Assembly: GCA_016190005.1 (NCBI GenBank)
Contig: JACPRK010000139.1
Span: forward strand, 24,717-88,716
From: Candidatus Wallbacteria bacterium
GTDB taxonomy: Bacteria; Muiribacteriota; UBA6191; JACPRK01
Direction: 5' to 3'
DNA length: 64,000 nucleotides
Notes under the pieces: model-generated
Told to the model about the DNA's origin: nothing
The model's input: the letters and a program-made list of their open reading frames with translations, nothing else
Database searches by the model: none
Shown: piece by piece, positions 22,426 through 31,926 of the stretch
Layout of the letters: every line of letters starts with the position of its first letter
Position numbering within the stretch: the stretch's first letter is position 1
Translations under genes and position numbers: made by a program

Positions 22426-23394
22426 TCATCGAAGCCCCGCCAGCGACAAGATCAGCGCGGACACGCCCATCAGGAAGAGAACCCAGGGGAGGCTCCGAAG
22501 AGGTCGCCGCGCCGCGCGTGCCGGCAAGGAAAGGCGCAGGGTATCGGTACTTGCCGATGCGGGTAGCTGGGATGGTCTCCGGGCTGCCTGGGCAAGAGCG
22601 CGGCTGACGCGGTCGAGGTCCCCGAATCGATCTCTAGGCCGCCGGGCCAGCATCCTGAGGAGAGTATCGCTGGCGAGGGGTGAGAGTTCGGGGCGCAGCC
22701 GCGCCGGCGGAACCGGCGGCTCGGTCATGCGCGCCACGACTTCATCTGCCGGCGAGACTCGGGCAAAGGGGCGGCTGCCGACGACGAGCTCGTAAAGCAC
22801 GACGCCCAGCGAATACTGATCGGACGCAGACGAGGCTCCGGAGCCCTCGAAGAGCTCGGGAGCTACGTAACCGGCCGTTCCCACGACGATGCCGCGGCGC
22901 GTCACGAGCGCGGAGTCGGCCGATTTGGCAAACCCGAAGTCGAGTAGAACCGGACAGTCGGGCTCCGGCATCAGGATGTTCTCGGGCTTGAGGTCGCGAT
23001 GAACGATACCGTGCCGGTGAATCTCCGAGAGGGCCGACGCGAGCCGCATGCCGATGACGAGAGCTTGCCGGACAGGCAGAGCGCCCCGAACGACCAACTG
23101 TCGCAGCGTGGCACCGGCGATCCAGGGAGTCACCAGATAGGGAACCTGATCCACGACCCCGTGCTCCAGTACCGGCACGATTCCCGGATGGCGAAGCCGT
23201 GCGCCGACGCGTGCCTCGTGAAGAAACCGAGCTACCGCGTCAGGATCGTCCACGTGCTCTTCGGAGAGGACCTTCACGGCCACGTCCCGGCCCGAGGCCA
23301 CGCTCCGGGCCTGCCACACCGTCGCGAAGCTGCCGACCCCGAGAACACGGGCGGGCACGTACCGATCCAGCAGGAGCTGCGGGAATCCGGACAT
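22426..23394 (-). CDS. serine/threonine protein kinase with C-terminal transmembrane segment
   Basis: VAVKVL, HRDLKPENIL, DFGFAKS and GTAGYVAPE Hanks motifs. C-terminal hydrophobic helix WVLFLMGVSALILSLAGL. Confidence 0.8.
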   Translation of the reverse strand: MSGFPQLLLDRYVPARVLGVGSFATVWQARSVASGRDVAVKVLSEEHVDDPDAVARFLHEARVGARLRHPGIVPVLEHGVVDQVPYLVTPWIAGATLRQLVVRGALPVRQALVIGMRLASALSEIHRHGIVHRDLKPENILMPEPDCPVLLDFGFAKSADSALVTRRGIVVGTAGYVAPELFEGSGASSASDQYSLGVVLYELVVGSRPFARVSPADEVVARMTEPPVPPARLRPELSPLASDTLLRMLARRPRDRFGDLDRVSRALAQAARRPSQLPASASTDTLRLSLPARAARRPLRSLPWVLFLMGVSALILSLAGLR

Positions 23395-23400
23395 CGCTCT

Positions 23401-24237
23401 TCACGAAGTCTCGATCCGGGAGAAGTAGCCATCTTCGATCCAGTCCTGAGACCACCTCCGAAGTCTCGCGGAGAGCTCGTCGGGCTCCAGAGCCGCGTCG
23501 CGTTGCACCTTCTTCATCGCCTTGGCAAGGCACCGGCCCTGCACGAGCAGGCTCAGCAACCTGTATTCGTCCTGAGAGAGCTCCCTTCTCCAGACGCTCC
23601 AGTTCTTGCGATAGAGGACCGTGAAACTGGGGGCCGCGTCCGGCAAGGGAACGGACTCTCCACGCTTGACCGCCTGCAAGTAGGCGTTGACCGGGTACCC
23701 GAAGGCGCGCAACTGCAGCGTGGGAGCGGCGATGAAGACCGCGCCGCTCCAGTCGGCCGGACGCAGCGTCGCCAGCCCGCGCGCATCGAACGGACCCGGC
23801 TCCTCTGCGTCAAAGACGAGCGTCATCGCAAGCTCGAGCTCGGCCAGATCCGCGAGTACCGCACAGCTTTTCAGGTCACGGAGTGAACGGAGAAAACGAG
23901 GGAGGTGACGACCGAGCTGATTGAGGTTGGGATGAACAGACGGGTACGCCCGGATGTACTCGTCGACGAGCGACTTCCATGCCTCGGCACCGAGCGCGTC
24001 TTTCAACACGGGATAGTCCGTCGCCAGGGCATCTCGCATCCTGAGGGGGTACATCTGTGCGTAGACGGCCAGGCGATCGACAGGCTGCAGTCTGGCCGCG
24101 GGCAAGACGATCTCCTCAGCGCGGGCATCCAGGTGTCGTCGCGCATCGTCGGAATCGACTCCGCACCACGCGCAGTGAGGATGGGTCAGGACAGCCTGCA
24201 TCCATCCTTGGAGCTGACGAAGGGAGGGCTCAGCCAT
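23401..24237 (-). CDS. DUF2063-family protein, partner of the MNIO enzyme (BufC/MbnC-like)
   Basis: Immediately downstream of the DUF692 gene, overlapping by about 8 nt. N-terminal LRQLQGWMQAVL is typical of DUF2063. Confidence 0.7.
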   Translation of the reverse strand: MAEPSLRQLQGWMQAVLTHPHCAWCGVDSDDARRHLDARAEEIVLPAARLQPVDRLAVYAQMYPLRMRDALATDYPVLKDALGAEAWKSLVDEYIRAYPSVHPNLNQLGRHLPRFLRSLRDLKSCAVLADLAELELAMTLVFDAEEPGPFDARGLATLRPADWSGAVFIAAPTLQLRAFGYPVNAYLQAVKRGESVPLPDAAPSFTVLYRKNWSVWRRELSQDEYRLLSLLVQGRCLAKAMKKVQRDAALEPDELSARLRRWSQDWIEDGYFSRIETS

Positions 24238-25095
24238 GGACGGCCTCCGCTCGCAGTGGGGCCGAATCCGTGAGAGGACGGCCGTGACGCGCCTTCATCG
24301 CCTCGGCCAGGAGCACGTCGAAGGGCGGAATGTCCGCGTCCCACTCGTAGATGGTGGTGCGTCCTCCGCTCAGACGGGTCGCAAGCTCGTGGAGCGCCCA
24401 CACCCCGGGGAGCGCGTGGTCCGAGTGGGTGTCGATCAGGTGGGTGCCAACGTCGGTGTGGCCGGCCATATGGAAGTAGCCGACTCGCTCCCACGGGACG
24501 GCTTCGAGGTACTCGACCGGGTCGAAGCCGCAATTGACACTCGAGACGTAGACATTGTTGACGTCGATGAGGAGGCCGCAATCGGCCTCGTCGCACATCC
24601 GGGCCAGGAACTCCCACTCGGGCATCGAACTGTGCGTGAACGCCAGGTAGGTCGACGGGTTCTCCAGGAAGAGGGGCCGTTCCAGCAGGTCCTGGACGAT
24701 GCGAATCCTCGCCACGACGTGCGCAAGCGTCTGCTCGTCGTAGGGCAGCGGCAACAGGTCGTGGAGGTTTCGCCCCGCGACCCCGGTCCAGCAGACGTGA
24801 TCGGAGACCATCCTGGCGCGCGTTCGATCGGCCAGCGCCTTGACGCGTCTGACGTAGGCGCGATCCAGAAGGTCGGTGCTGCCGATGGAGAGGGAAACTC
24901 CGTGCATCACCACAGGGTAGCGGGCGGCCACCCGATCCAGCACGTGGAGCGGGCGCCCCCCCGTGTCGAGATAGTTGTCGGTGAGGACCTCGAACAGATC
25001 GACGGCCGGCCAGTGCGCGAGGACGTGGCCGTAATGGACCGTCCGGAGGCCGACGCCGACTCCCAGGTCGGTGGCAATGGACTGAATGGAGGACA
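24230..25095 (-). CDS. MNIO (multinuclear non-heme iron oxidative) enzyme, DUF692/UPF0276, BufB/MbnB-like
   Basis: MSSIQSIATDLGVGVGLRTVHYGHVL...TDNYLDTGG...HGVSLSIGSTD...ENPSTYL...HMAGH is the DUF692 TIM-barrel pattern. The ORF track extends it upstream to 25441, but that extension is an alternate-frame artefact of the precursor repeat. Confidence 0.8.
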
Positions 25096-25203
25096 TGAGT
25101 CGGTTTTCAGCGGAAGGAGGGCAGGCGACGGAGCCGGGGGGGATCGAGTGGGGGATGGCCCGCCGCCTGCCTCCAGGTACGGAGCGTTCAGGTGAGAAGG
25201 ACG

Positions 25204-25638
25204 TCAGCCCTTGTGGGGCACGGCACAACCGCCGAGACCCTTGCAGTCGTTCTTGCCCGCGCACTCGTTCTTCTCGGTCTTGCAGCCGCCGAGACCCTTG
25301 CAGTCGTTCTGTCCCTTGCACGCGTGCTTGGCGTCCTGGCTGGCACAGCCGCCCAGGCCCTTGCATTCGTTCTTGCCGGCGCACTCGTGCTTGTCCGTCT
25401 TGCAACCGCCGTGACCCTTGCACGAGTTCAATCCCTTGCACGCGTGGCGATCGGTCTTGGCCTCCTCGCTCGCAGCCTTGCTGGAGCCCTCCCCGGACCG
25501 ATCGGGTGTGCGCTCCGCTGCCGCCGGCGGCTCCTGTGAGCTGCCGCTACCCCCGTCCTGAGAGTAGACCAACCCGGCACCGGCGAGCACACCCGAGGCG
25601 ATCGCGCTGAGCATGAGTGTCTTGTTCCTGCGATTCAT
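25204..25638 (-). CDS. bufferin-like RiPP precursor: Sec signal peptide plus a 12-Cys tandem-repeat core
   Basis: AGGAGG RBS. Signal peptide MNRRNKTLMLSAIASGVLAGAGLVYSQ. The core is HACKGLNSCKGHGGCKTDKHECAGKNECKGLGGCASQDAK + HACKGQNDCKGLGGCKTEKNECAGKNDCKGLGGCAVPHKG, with 12 Cys in CKGxGGC / CAGKNxC repeats. It lies directly upstream of the MNIO and DUF2063 genes. Confidence 0.7.
   Translation of the reverse strand: MNRRNKTLMLSAIASGVLAGAGLVYSQDGGSGSSQEPPAAAERTPDRSGEGSSKAASEEAKTDRHACKGLNSCKGHGGCKTDKHECAGKNECKGLGGCASQDAKHACKGQNDCKGLGGCKTEKNECAGKNDCKGLGGCAVPHKG
25207..25446 (-). repeat. in-frame tandem duplication (2 x ~117 nt) encoding the 6-Cys core unit of the precursor
   Basis: Two near-identical 39-codon units. 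The same repeat produces the spurious overlapping ORFs 25192-25539(+), 25211-25414(+) and the 5-prime extension of ORF 24230-25441(-). Confidence 0.6.
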
Positions 25639-25899
25639 CCGAAGCAGCCTCCTTTGAGAAATCGATGGTTCGGTTCCGCCGAGATACGACGCAGCGGGGC
25701 CGGCAAGGTAACTGCGGTTGCCACAGATTTCGTCGAGGACGGTGGCCAGGTGATTCGCGCCATCCCGTTACCTGGCGCCCACTGGGCCGTCTTCCGGCCA
25801 TGAAGACGATGATGGTCACGAGCAGCCTCGCTCGCGTGCTCCGGGCGCCGAGATGGGCTGACACATCGGTCCTCGCGACGGAGGCGGTGCTGGCCAGCC

Positions 25900-26520
25900 G
25901 TGAAAGACGACAGGAAAGTGGGTTCGGCGGTCTCGGCGGATGACGACGAGGTACTGCGGCGATCGTCGACTCAGGAACCTGAGGCCTTCGGGGTCCTGGT
26001 CGGGAGGCACACTACCGGAGTTCTCCGGTTCCTCATGCGGCGTACCGCCGACCGAGCGATGGCCGAAGATCTCGTGCAGGAAACGTTTCTGAGGGCGTAC
26101 TCAGCTCGACGTGCCTGGCGCTCGGAAGGGAGCGTCCTCGGCTGGCTGCTCACGATCGCACGCCGTCTCCTGATTTCGCGCATGCGGAGGTTACGACGGA
26201 GACTGACCGTGCCCCTGGAAGGCGCATCGGAGCGCGAACTCCAGAGCCGGATCGGTGTTCCGGAAGAGACCGTCCTACGGCGAGAGCGTCACGACGCGGT
26301 CCGGCGTGAAGTGTTGCGTCTGAGGCCGAAACACAGGGACGTGATCGTGCTGTGGCTCCACGGAGAGTTGCACTACACCCGGATGGCCGGGCTGCTGGGA
26401 ACGACCGAGGCTCGGGTGAGGCAGCGTGTCTTCCACGCCAAGGAAGCTCTCGAGGGGCGTTTGCACGAGTTCCGACCGGGCGAGGGAGCCGGCGGCAGGC
26501 GACGAACTGCGAAGGGCTGA
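25900..26520 (+). CDS. ECF-type RNA polymerase sigma factor, divergent from the precursor gene
   Basis: DLVQETFLRAYSARRAW...GWLLTIARRLLISRMR (region 2) and DVIVLWLHGELHYTRMAGLLGTTEARVRQRVFHAKEAL (region 4). Confidence 0.8.
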   Translation: MKDDRKVGSAVSADDDEVLRRSSTQEPEAFGVLVGRHTTGVLRFLMRRTADRAMAEDLVQETFLRAYSARRAWRSEGSVLGWLLTIARRLLISRMRRLRRRLTVPLEGASERELQSRIGVPEETVLRRERHDAVRREVLRLRPKHRDVIVLWLHGELHYTRMAGLLGTTEARVRQRVFHAKEALEGRLHEFRPGEGAGGRRRTAKG

Positions 26521-28948: not shown

Positions 28949-30835
28949 ATGCTGAACCTGCTCTTGAAATGCCTCCGAACTCGCGCATCATTACAACCGC
29001 CTCAGCGCCCGGCGTGGTTCGCACTGGCGCTGACCTTCTTGGCTGCAGCGCCGCATGTCGCGGCCGAACCCGTAACCGCATCGCTCGAATTTTCCCGGAA
29101 GGCTGTGCAGCCCGGGCAGACGGTGGAAGGCCTCGTCCGGCTTCGCATCCAGCCGGGCTATCATCTCTACGGCCCGGACGAGACGCAGGGCTTGCCGACC
29201 GCGGTGAAGCTCGTGGTGCCTGCCGGGGTCACAGTGAGCGCGCCGCGCTTCCCGGCGCCGCGAGAGGCCCATTACGAGGCGCTCGGCGGCAAGCTGAGGC
29301 TCTACGAGGATGATATCGCCGTCGGGTTCACGCTCGAGGTAGCGCCGGCGTTTTCCGGCAGCCGCGTAGGTGTGAGCGCGTTGCTCGATTACCAGCCCTG
29401 CACCGATCGCATTTGCGAGCGACCGCGGCAAGGCGTCGAAGCGAGTGCCGGGCTTCCGGTGGTGAGCGTGGCGGCAGCTGCGTCCGCCGACTCGCCCGAG
29501 TTGCCGGGCTCGCCGCTCAGGCAAAACCCTCTACGTGTCGCGCTCGACCGTGGCCTGTTGTGGGCGCTGCTCGCGGCGTTCGGCTGGGGCATCGCGGCCA
29601 GCTTCAGCCCCTGCGTCTATCCGATGATCCCGATCACGGTCTCCTACTTCGGCGGGCAATCGAAGTCCGGAAGCACCGCCCGCAGGGTAGCCCTCGCCTG
29701 TACTTACGTGCTCGGCATGGTCACCACCTACACGGCGGCCGGGGTGGCGGCGGCAAGGATGGGGCGAGACCTGGGAGCCGTCATGGCCAATCCGTGGATG
29801 ATCGGCTCTCTGTCCCTCGTGCTGGTCGCGCTGGCCGGATCGATGTTCGGACTGTATGTGCTTCAACTGCCGCGGGCGCTGACCGGCCGACTGCAGGCCG
29901 ACGACCGCGGTGGCTTTCTCGAAGCTTTCTTCCTGGGGCTGGTCCTGGGCTTCGTGGCGGCGCCCTGCGTGGGACCCTTCGCGGGCAGCATCCTCGTCTT
30001 CGTTGCCCAGTCCGCGGATCCGCTCGTTGGCTCCCTGACGCTGTTCAGCTTCGGCCTCGGGATGGGGATGCTCTTCATCGCCATCGCCGTGTCTTCGGGC
30101 ACCCTTGCGCTGATGCCGCGATCGGGCAAGTGGCTGCTCGCGCTGGAACGCTTCTTCGGGTACGTGCTGATCGGCATGGCGATTTACCTGGTTTCGAATG
30201 TCGTCGCGGCATCGGTGGCGACCTGGTTGTTCGGCGCCTACCTGGTCGCCGGCGGGACGTACCTGGGCGCCTTCATGCCCGTGCCAGCCGGGGCAAGCGG
30301 CTGGACACGGATGACCCAGGCCGCGGCGATCGTCATGGCTTCGACAGGCGTAGCCACCGTCATGTCGGGTACACCGTGGAACGGCGCCTTGCGCGAGGCA
30401 GCACGGCATGAGGCGGCCACGAACGGACGCGTGCTCGCCGAAGAGAGTGAAGGCATCCGCTGGTTCCGTTCACTCGAGGAGGCCAGGACCGAAGCCACCC
30501 GGACCGGCAAGCCGATCTTCGCCGATTTCTACGCAGACTGGTGTGTGCCTTGCCGCCTGATGGACCGCACGACGTTTCGAGATTCCCGGGTCGTGAAGGC
30601 CATGGAAGCGTTCATCGCCCTGAAAGCAGACTGTACGCAGCCGAAGATGCCGGCGGCCCGTTACAAGAATGACGTGTTGAAGTCCCCCGTCATGCCCTAC
30701 CTGGCCTTCTTCGGCCCGGCCGGCAACCCGCTTCCCGCCGATTCCATCGAGGGCTATACCGATGCTTCCGAGCTGCTCGCCGCGCTACATTCCGTCGCTG
30801 GGCGCTTTCAGCCACACCGGCAAGACCGCCAATGA
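28949..30835 (+). CDS. dsbD: thiol:disulfide interchange protein DsbD (alpha, CcdA-like transmembrane and thioredoxin domains)
   Basis: Periplasmic N-terminal domain with ...YQPCTDRICERP. Transmembrane core with SFSPCVYPMIPI and AAPCVGPF Cys motifs. C-terminal thioredoxin motif ADWCVPCRLMD. Confidence 0.85.
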   Translation: MLNLLLKCLRTRASLQPPQRPAWFALALTFLAAAPHVAAEPVTASLEFSRKAVQPGQTVEGLVRLRIQPGYHLYGPDETQGLPTAVKLVVPAGVTVSAPRFPAPREAHYEALGGKLRLYEDDIAVGFTLEVAPAFSGSRVGVSALLDYQPCTDRICERPRQGVEASAGLPVVSVAAAASADSPELPGSPLRQNPLRVALDRGLLWALLAAFGWGIAASFSPCVYPMIPITVSYFGGQSKSGSTARRVALACTYVLGMVTTYTAAGVAAARMGRDLGAVMANPWMIGSLSLVLVALAGSMFGLYVLQLPRALTGRLQADDRGGFLEAFFLGLVLGFVAAPCVGPFAGSILVFVAQSADPLVGSLTLFSFGLGMGMLFIAIAVSSGTLALMPRSGKWLLALERFFGYVLIGMAIYLVSNVVAASVATWLFGAYLVAGGTYLGAFMPVPAGASGWTRMTQAAAIVMASTGVATVMSGTPWNGALREAARHEAATNGRVLAEESEGIRWFRSLEEARTEATRTGKPIFADFYADWCVPCRLMDRTTFRDSRVVKAMEAFIALKADCTQPKMPAARYKNDVLKSPVMPYLAFFGPAGNPLPADSIEGYTDASELLAALHSVAGRFQPHRQDRQ

Positions 30836-31371: not shown

Positions 31372-31926
31372 TCACGAGCCGGCCTCGCGGTCGCCGCCGG
31401 AGCCGGCGGGATAGTCGTCCATGGAGCGCCTCCTGCGAGGCGGCTCCTCGGCCGGTGCCGTTGCTTCCTCCGGCGCGGGAAGCTGCTCGATCCACTCGCT
31501 GACCTGCCGGTGAGCTGCTTTCCCTTCCATCGCCCGGCGTCCCCTGCTGTCGTAGATGACGAAGTGAGGCAGCGCCCGAATGCCGTACTGCTCGGCGACG
31601 GGGGAGCTGAAATCGATGCTCCGTGAGCCGGGCCGGTCGACGTTGATCGTCCTCACGGCGATATCCGCGCGGGCCTCGACCAAGCGCTGCAGCCCGGGCG
31701 CGATAGCCCTGCAGGGCGGGCAGTTGCGGCTGTGGAAGTCGAAGATGGTCATCTTTCCCGGCACTCGATATCGCTCGATGTCGATCTCCAATCCGGCTTC
31801 TCCGATGGCTCCGATCGCCGCCCGGGAGCCGGGTCTCAGCATCTTCGCAGTGTCACCCGAGAACGCCAGGCCGCCCAAGACGGCGAAACCCGCGATCACG
31901 GTCCAGATAGGAACTCTCATTCTCAT
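31372..31926 (-). CDS. thioredoxin-like (TlpA/thiol-disulfide oxidoreductase) protein
   Basis: Signal/anchor N-terminus. Redox motif FHSRNCPPCRAIAP within a thioredoxin fold. Confidence 0.7.
   Translation of the reverse strand: MRMRVPIWTVIAGFAVLGGLAFSGDTAKMLRPGSRAAIGAIGEAGLEIDIERYRVPGKMTIFDFHSRNCPPCRAIAPGLQRLVEARADIAVRTINVDRPGSRSIDFSSPVAEQYGIRALPHFVIYDSRGRRAMEGKAAHRQVSEWIEQLPAPEEATAPAEEPPRRRRSMDDYPAGSGGDREAGS

Follow-up and report, generated by a model that had tools for sequence, protein, structure and literature searches.

Upstream of a gene for a bufferin maturase, on the minus strand of a contig from an uncultured Candidatus Wallbacteria bacterium, lies a short gene in which one cysteine-rich stretch is repeated in tandem. 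The locus raises the question of when this repeat arose: whether a 6-Cys precursor was recently turned into a 12-Cys one in this lineage, or whether the two units were inherited from an older ancestor together with the gene family. The window, as the term is used here, is the whole 64,000-nucleotide stretch of DNA that was analysed, and all coordinates are positions within it. We read the region as the core-peptide coding part of a 12-Cys BufA2 (Buf2, BUF_6/12Cys) precursor that goes back to an old duplication, and we put the probability of this reading at roughly 85%.

The precursor gene and its tandem repeat

The precursor gene and its parts are listed below.

25648-25654, minus strand: Shine-Dalgarno-like AAGGAGG, 9 nt 5' of the bufA2 ATG, read from the sequence
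25204-25638, minus strand: bufA2, 144-aa bufferin-2 precursor consisting of predicted signal peptide, spacer and two 6-Cys units (ORF list, NCBIfam)
25561-25638, minus strand: predicted signal peptide MNRRNKTLMLSAIASGVLAGAGLVYS, aa 1-26, judged by eye
25447-25560, minus strand: low-complexity spacer between signal peptide and Cys core, aa 27-64 (translation)
25342-25446, minus strand: 6-Cys unit 1, aa 65-99, HACKGLNSCKGHGGCKTDKHECAGKNECKGLGGCA (TRF, repeat search and translation)
25327-25341, minus strand: diverged linker SQDAK, 5 codons, aa 100-104 (translation)
25222-25326, minus strand: 6-Cys unit 2, aa 105-139, HACKGQNDCKGLGGCKTEKNECAGKNDCKGLGGCA (TRF, repeat search and translation)

The start codon of bufA2 is an ATG, directly preceded by CTCAAAGGAGGCTGCTTCGG, and GC3 of the gene is 0.85. 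From the N-terminus onward the product runs MNRRNKTLMLSAIASGVLAGAGLVYS, QDGG...KTDR, HACKGLNSCKGHGGCKTDKHECAGKNECKGLGGCA, SQDAK, HACKGQNDCKGLGGCKTEKNECAGKNDCKGLGGCA and VPHKG, the last of these being a C-terminal tail that stands after unit 2 as the counterpart of the linker SQDAK. Against the NCBIfam model NF050166 (Cu_RiPP_BufA2) the 144-aa ORF scores 62 bits (E=4.6e-17), narrowly above the cutoff of 60, and the match consists of two stretches that correspond to the two 6-Cys units. The signal peptide was predicted by eye from the succession of a basic (n), a hydrophobic (h) and a small-residue (c) region (MNRRNK-TLMLSAIASGVLAGAGLV-YS), and homologs align over this part of the protein. The low-complexity spacer behind it differs among homologs in both length and sequence. 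A 22-nt inverted repeat (25502-25523 and 25575-25596, 86% complementary, arms 51 nt apart) is contained in the stretch coding for signal peptide and spacer, and is probably there by chance.

In 47 of the best 120 BufA2 homologs the hydrophobic segment is preceded by an RR-x-F motif, as in MDRRNFTKVMG or MKRREFTKAMG, which looks like a twin-arginine (Tat) signal. The N-terminus of the window protein, MNRRNKTLML, has the RR and is missing the F-x-K part. Two papers on bufferins speak of signal peptides of the Sec type only, with Tat unmentioned (PMC11626156, PMC12452194).

The cysteines stand at residues 67, 73, 79, 86, 92 and 98 in unit 1 and at 107, 113, 119, 126, 132 and 138 in unit 2, with gaps of 6, 6, 7, 6 and 6 in either unit and of 9 between them, in agreement with the family spacing C-x5-C-x5-C-x6-C-x5-C-x5-C. 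In an alignment of 76 sequences ten of the twelve occupy invariant columns; the other two, Cys119 and Cys126, come close to this, being conserved in at least 90%. These positions, taken from the translation, confirm the 12-Cys core with six cysteines per unit that the first-pass annotation had described. Neither the exact 144-aa precursor nor any of three variants with shorter starts was found in a collection of 15 billion proteins, in which the precursor's neighbours MBI2944900-902 and 904-907 are present. NCBI entry MBI2944903 falls between the MNIO and the sigma factor.

The repeat itself was delimited by two methods. TRF reports an array at 25222-25446 with a period of 120, 1.9 copies, 85% matches and 0% indels, and a repeat search pairs 25222-25326 with 25342-25446 at 86% identity. 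At an offset of 120, 90 of 105 nt match, as against 46 +/- 2 and a maximum of 52 in 200 shuffles, so that the repeat lies far beyond chance. On the minus strand it is direct and in frame, and its period of 120 nt equals 40 codons, made up of a conserved 35-codon block and the diverged 5-codon linker. Between the two blocks 29 of 35 amino acids are identical. The 15 nt differences in 105 comprise 6 in synonymous codons and 9 in six codons whose amino acid is changed, and in register no exact run is longer than 15 nt. A perfect in-frame duplication with units of 39 codons had initially been noted at 25207-25446; the tandem, in-frame and indel-free duplication is indeed present, but its perfection (15/105 nt and 6/35 aa differ) and the unit length of 39 codons have to be given up.

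A shorter repeat of about 57-63 nt is nested in the core, where TRF gives an array of period 57. The core can be divided into four 3-Cys half-units of the form C-x-G-x-N-x-C-K-G-x-G-G-C, and half-units 1/3, 2/4 and 3/4 are identical at 32-34 of 39 nt. Half-units 3 and 4 share a 25-nt exact match at offset 57, in which the rarer codons GGT and CTC are included. On the origin of the 12-Cys core from a 6-Cys unit by internal duplication, the earlier proposal is borne out by the repeat at sequence level. Each 6-Cys unit is in turn a still older duplication of the 3-Cys half-unit CxGxNxCKGxGGC.

Neighbouring genes and overlapping reading frames

The genes around bufA2, and the open reading frames that overlap it, are as follows.

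24230-25096, minus strand: bufB, MNIO (DUF692) bufferin maturase, 288 aa, ATG at 25096 (NCBIfam, Pfam)
23401-24237, minus strand: bufC, DUF2063 partner protein (Pfam PF09836)
25900-26520, plus strand: ECF sigma factor gene, divergent from bufA2
28949-30835, plus strand: DsbD thiol:disulfide interchange protein gene
31372-31926, minus strand: thioredoxin-family gene
25097-25441, minus strand: spurious lengthening of the MNIO frame by 115 codons at its 5' end, which crosses the bufA2 core in another frame (ORF 24230-25441)
25086-25610, plus strand: phantom antisense ORF, 174 aa (ORF list)
25192-25539 and 25211-25414, plus strand: phantom antisense ORFs overlapping the one at 25086-25610 (ORF list)

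The bufB product scores 335.8 bits against NF050167 (MNIO_BufB, cutoff 310) and matches Pfam PF05114 at E=6e-100. The first 8 nt of bufC overlap the end of bufB, and the bufC product scores 68 bits against Pfam PF09836 (cutoff 27). A designation of bufC as an HvfC equivalog was rejected, the NCBIfam HvfC model giving 68 bits, below its cutoff of 142. The gene order is bufA-bufB-bufC, and in 71 of 80 related loci the MNIO gene is likewise followed by one for a DUF2063 homolog. It had been suggested at the outset that the repeat-bearing gene encodes the precursor for the adjacent MNIO, and both the BufA2 model match and the BufB-type MNIO downstream agree with this.

Six nt past the bufC stop lies a gene for a 322-aa Ser/Thr protein kinase (22426-23394, minus strand), which is probably in an operon with bufC. 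A kinase is found near the cluster in just 1-2 of the 80 related loci, and the link between kinase and cluster is therefore not conserved. On the other side, the DsbD and thioredoxin-family genes are located a few kb beyond the ECF sigma factor gene, and such thiol-redox neighbours may be relevant to a 12-Cys periplasmic protein. Sigma factor genes have been reported in Buf1 but not in Buf2 gene clusters (PMC12452194).

A GC-rich stem-loop of about 18 bp, with no U-tract, can be drawn in the intergenic stretch that separates bufA2 from bufB (25116-25174, minus strand). It has a z of -3.35, and 0 of 200 shuffles fold as well. The closest ortholog, L001, yielded no comparable stem-loop (z=+0.96), and since it is absent there the hairpin was set aside as a part of the system. 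A promoter and terminator scan of 24900-26000 found nothing, and an Rfam scan of 24900-26100 returned a sub-threshold chance match only.

The reading frames that overlap bufA2 had been attributed to the repeat, both on the opposite strand and in the form of a false 116-codon N-terminal extension of the MNIO. The extension does exist and is spurious; it is 115 codons long, and the repeat is not needed as its cause. Homolog alignments to bufB start at residues 9-10, the exact 288-aa product is NCBI MBI2944902.1, and the public NCBI annotation already has this short start. In the protein collection the 288-aa form is present, and the 403-aa and 378-aa forms are absent. The antisense ORFs at 25086-25610, 25192-25539 and 25211-25414 have no family match and are absent from the protein collection. 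In all, exact-sequence look-ups in this collection gave no match for seven ORFs, besides the precursor and extended MNIO forms, that overlap the precursor gene or flank it.

With a GC content of 66%, the window has at an average position 3.4 of six frames open at a threshold of at least 100 codons and 3.9 at a threshold of at least 80 codons. Across the repeat region the figure is 4.0, close to this background, so that the opposite-strand ORFs, although real as open frames, do not call for the repeat as their cause. The overlapping ORFs are by-products of stop-poor, GC-rich sequence. The repeat does propagate the stop-free pattern, though the ORFs can be explained without it.

Age of the duplication

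At E<=1e-3 bufA2 has 1899 homologs, and the layout of the precursor was counted in the best 120 of them. Exactly two canonical units, spaced at 38-42 codons, are present in 103 of these 120, with a spacing of 40 codons in 59 and of 39 codons in 37 (together 96 of the 103). At the loci of the closest MNIOs, several precursors that a regular expression classed as single-unit (L044, L045 and L079) are visibly two-unit with unit-1 Cys lost. A comparison with orthologous precursors had been proposed by the first-pass annotation, which took the duplication to be recent. The comparison does find the duplicated 12-Cys form, but the 103 two-unit precursors among 120 speak against recency.

The two units can moreover be told apart across the family. 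When 32-aa Cys-to-Cys cores were compared, units at the same position were the closer ones in 2885 protein pairs and units at crossed positions in 1281, an excess of 1604 as against -2 +/- 64 under permuted unit order. This signature is seen inside either spacing class, 39 or 40 codons, as well as from one class to the other, and for the window protein alone the counts are 64 same-position and 15 cross-position. It resides mainly in column 4, with M/H/L in unit 1 and Q/K/M in unit 2, and in column 10, with K/Q in unit 1 and Q/L/M in unit 2. The window protein, which has L and Q in column 4 and H and L in column 10, follows it.

The divergence between the two window units was set against that between genes. 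Window unit 1 matches window unit 2 at 90/108 nt and matches unit 1 of L001 at 90/108 nt as well; L001 comes from another Wallbacteria MAG, and its MNIO is 73% identical to that of the window. By the method of Nei and Gojobori the window units differ with a dS of 0.50 and a dN of 0.09 (dN/dS 0.19). Among 30 distinct two-unit genes the median DNA identity between units is 0.82 (10-90% range 0.80-0.89), and the value of 0.84 for the window gene is typical. Identical codons at conserved residues amount to 0.79 between the window units and to 0.56-0.86 against distant orthologs from Acidobacteriota, Planctomycetota and others. The 80 closest MNIOs were placed on a neighbour-joining tree without support values, in which the window clusters with L001, L059, L075 and L077, each of which has a two-unit precursor, and the two-unit layout is also found in the neighbouring clade.

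The claim of recency is not borne out, given the dS, the layout and unit signatures shared family-wide and a divergence at the level of orthologs. The duplication is old and was inherited from an ancestor common to many two-unit BufA2 genes. Since that event both units have evolved under purifying selection.

A variant of this history accepts the old duplication and has the units and half-units kept alike by ongoing intragenic gene conversion, not by purifying selection alone. Mean identity is 0.74 between the units of one protein and 0.74 between same-position units of different proteins, which possibly reflects some homogenisation of the units, or simply strong motif constraint. The 25-nt match of half-units 3 and 4, with its rarer codons, could likewise be the trace of an exchanged tract, yet on a rough estimate from codon frequencies a match of this kind has a chance of about 5% over six half-unit pairs. 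In two Brocadiaceae/Planctomycetota loci, L075 (2169-2531) and L077 (2421-2858), the units share 29/31 and 28/28 codons at conserved residues while differing at 5-8 amino acids; this codon identity favours conversion, and it suggests that, unlike the window gene, that lineage has undergone recent duplication or gene conversion. The units of the window gene agree at synonymous sites to the degree found with unrelated orthologs, no in-register run exceeds 15 nt and the unit-specific residues persist, all of which argues against conversion. We regard ongoing conversion as an unlikely account of the likeness between the window units.

Less probable still is a recent, lineage-specific step from a 6-Cys to a 12-Cys precursor, with a copy number that may still vary among strains; we give it little chance of being right. 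A repeat that is in frame and free of indels would suit such an event, and the family includes forms with one, two, three and apparently more units, so expansions occur. In Buf2 homologs the number of canonical 6-Cys units runs from one up to three or more, and that of Cys from 6 to 25: there are 18 Cys in P0001 and in P0023, two of whose units are identical, and 25 in each of P0004 and P0010. Identical codons between the window units (23 of 29) also exceed the 16.4 expected from genome-average codon usage, with P about 0.006. This excess was rejected as a sign of recency, for real orthologs reach the same level. A dS of about 0.5, with 15 of 105 nt differing, speaks against a recent event, as do units that are no nearer each other than their L001 counterparts, unit-specific signatures common to the family, an inter-unit identity usual for two-unit genes and nearest relatives on the MNIO tree that are all two-unit. 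In a metagenome scan for close relatives with the precursor as query, the best match was 62% identical.

That mis-assembly or an artefactual duplication produced the second unit is very unlikely from the sequence and close to negligible, for apart from the general caution due to a short-read MAG contig everything points the other way: artefactual copies would be identical, whereas 15 sites differ here in a coding-like manner (dN/dS 0.19), the frame is unbroken with all twelve Cys in place, and many independent assemblies have a like architecture with 39-40-codon spacing. The differing sites, the shortness of the longest exact run (15 nt) and the agreement of independent assemblies likewise count against the earlier warning that assemblers might collapse or expand the repeat.

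Having preferred the old, inherited duplication, we mention one broader and speculative idea, which we consider rather unlikely. Unit number in Buf2 precursors might be evolutionarily dynamic, kept by intragenic recombination or gene conversion of 3- or 6-Cys modules and tuning periplasmic metal buffering. The window gene would then represent one stable two-unit state, in which short tracts, the 25-nt one of half-units 3 and 4 among them, may still be exchanged.

Predicted function and relation to known bufferins

The BUF_6/12Cys family is named for its six or twelve conserved Cys (PMC11626156). Among Buf2 precursors 90% have six conserved Cys and the remainder twelve, and an AlphaFold2 model of a 12-Cys Buf2 shows duplicated 6-Cys domains (PMC12452194). 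In Buf2 of Caulobacter vibrioides the central cysteines carry the -4 Da shifts of thiooxazoles, whereas the first and last (CysI and CysVI) stay unmodified and are likely joined by a disulfide. The modification requires BufB and BufC, which together suffice for it, and bufferins accumulate in the periplasm and bind copper (PMC11626156).

By homology to the C. vibrioides system, the maturation, export and copper binding of the window protein would proceed along the same lines. The 144-aa precursor would be made in the cytoplasm, where BufB and its DUF2063 partner BufC would convert the central Cys of each 6-Cys unit to 5-thiooxazoles, with eight thiooxazoles predicted per precursor. The predicted N-terminal signal peptide would take the modified product to the periplasm, and there the outer Cys pair of each unit would probably become disulfide-bonded, one bond per unit. 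The heterocycles would bind copper and the protein would thereby buffer excess metal. The two units would act as two copies of one metal-binding domain, with roughly double the capacity of a 6-Cys bufferin. Structure prediction with AlphaFold2 gave unusable models, with a pLDDT of 48 for the full precursor (76 homologs) and of 43 for the core alone (111 homologs), and a profile search of PDB sequences returned no match at E<=1.

The closest described relatives are the 12-Cys Buf2 precursors of Leprevost et al. (Microb Genom 2025, PMC12452194), which likewise have a predicted signal peptide followed by two tandem 6-Cys units, with MNIO and DUF2063 genes adjacent and no DoxX gene. Nothing essential differs in the window system. 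Its particulars are its source in an uncultured Candidatus Wallbacteria MAG, the 38-aa low-complexity spacer and the ECF sigma factor gene beside the cluster. With the characterised founder of the family, C. vibrioides BufA2 (CCNA_03001; PNAS 2024, PMC11626156), the window protein shares the equivalog model, the Cys spacing within a unit and the bufA-bufB-bufC order, and by analogy the same chemistry is expected, namely 5-thiooxazoles, an outer-Cys disulfide and periplasmic copper binding. They differ in the number of 6-Cys units, of which the founder has one and the window protein two.

Two other groups of MNIO substrates are more distant. The Buf1/DUF2282 bufferins have a signal peptide, are matured by MNIO and DUF2063 proteins and bind copper in the periplasm, all of which is predicted for the window protein as well. 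However, they form a different precursor family with four conserved Cys, and their clusters usually contain DoxX and SigF/NrsF genes; a family search found no DUF2282 match in the window precursor. Oxazolins (Buf_EGKCG) and other repeat-built MNIO substrates resemble it in being Cys-rich and composed of internal repeats in variable number, and they are modified by an MNIO, as is predicted for the window protein. In oxazolins the EGKCG repeats are 17 residues long, the structural model is a beta-helix and the chemistry is of the oxazolone-thioamide type, in contrast to the CKGxGGC motif within 6-Cys units seen here.

Precursors of other kinds were encountered among the related loci. The commonest precursor beside the closest MNIO relatives is a non-canonical one with 9-10 Cys (L005, L008-L011, L013, L014, L016 and about 25 further loci). 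Its gene lies 5' of the one for the MNIO, and the protein carries a Tat-like RRDF signal and looks two-lobed by eye; its large clade has a conserved C-terminal tail, VPL..W.KAR..FE..M.K.GK.FG.AP. At a Blastocatellia MNIO locus (L012, 2400-2900, plus strand) the precursor consists of about 17 tandem CKGEKAS heptads, and is a different repeat-built Cys-rich substrate.

A duplicated 12-Cys core has already been described in the literature, and because the repeat is the old two-domain form of a known family, the window gene is an ordinary new BufA2 member that leaves the current understanding of bufferins unchanged. For annotation the locus is instructive in that, in GC-rich genomes, short Cys-rich RiPP precursors lie amid many stop-free frames, so that naive ORF tracks mislead. 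For the family, the region adds an example of a two-domain bufferin from an uncultured phylum, represented by a Candidatus Wallbacteria MAG, in which the 6-to-12-Cys duplication is ancient and was inherited with its unit-specific residues, and has not recurred recently.
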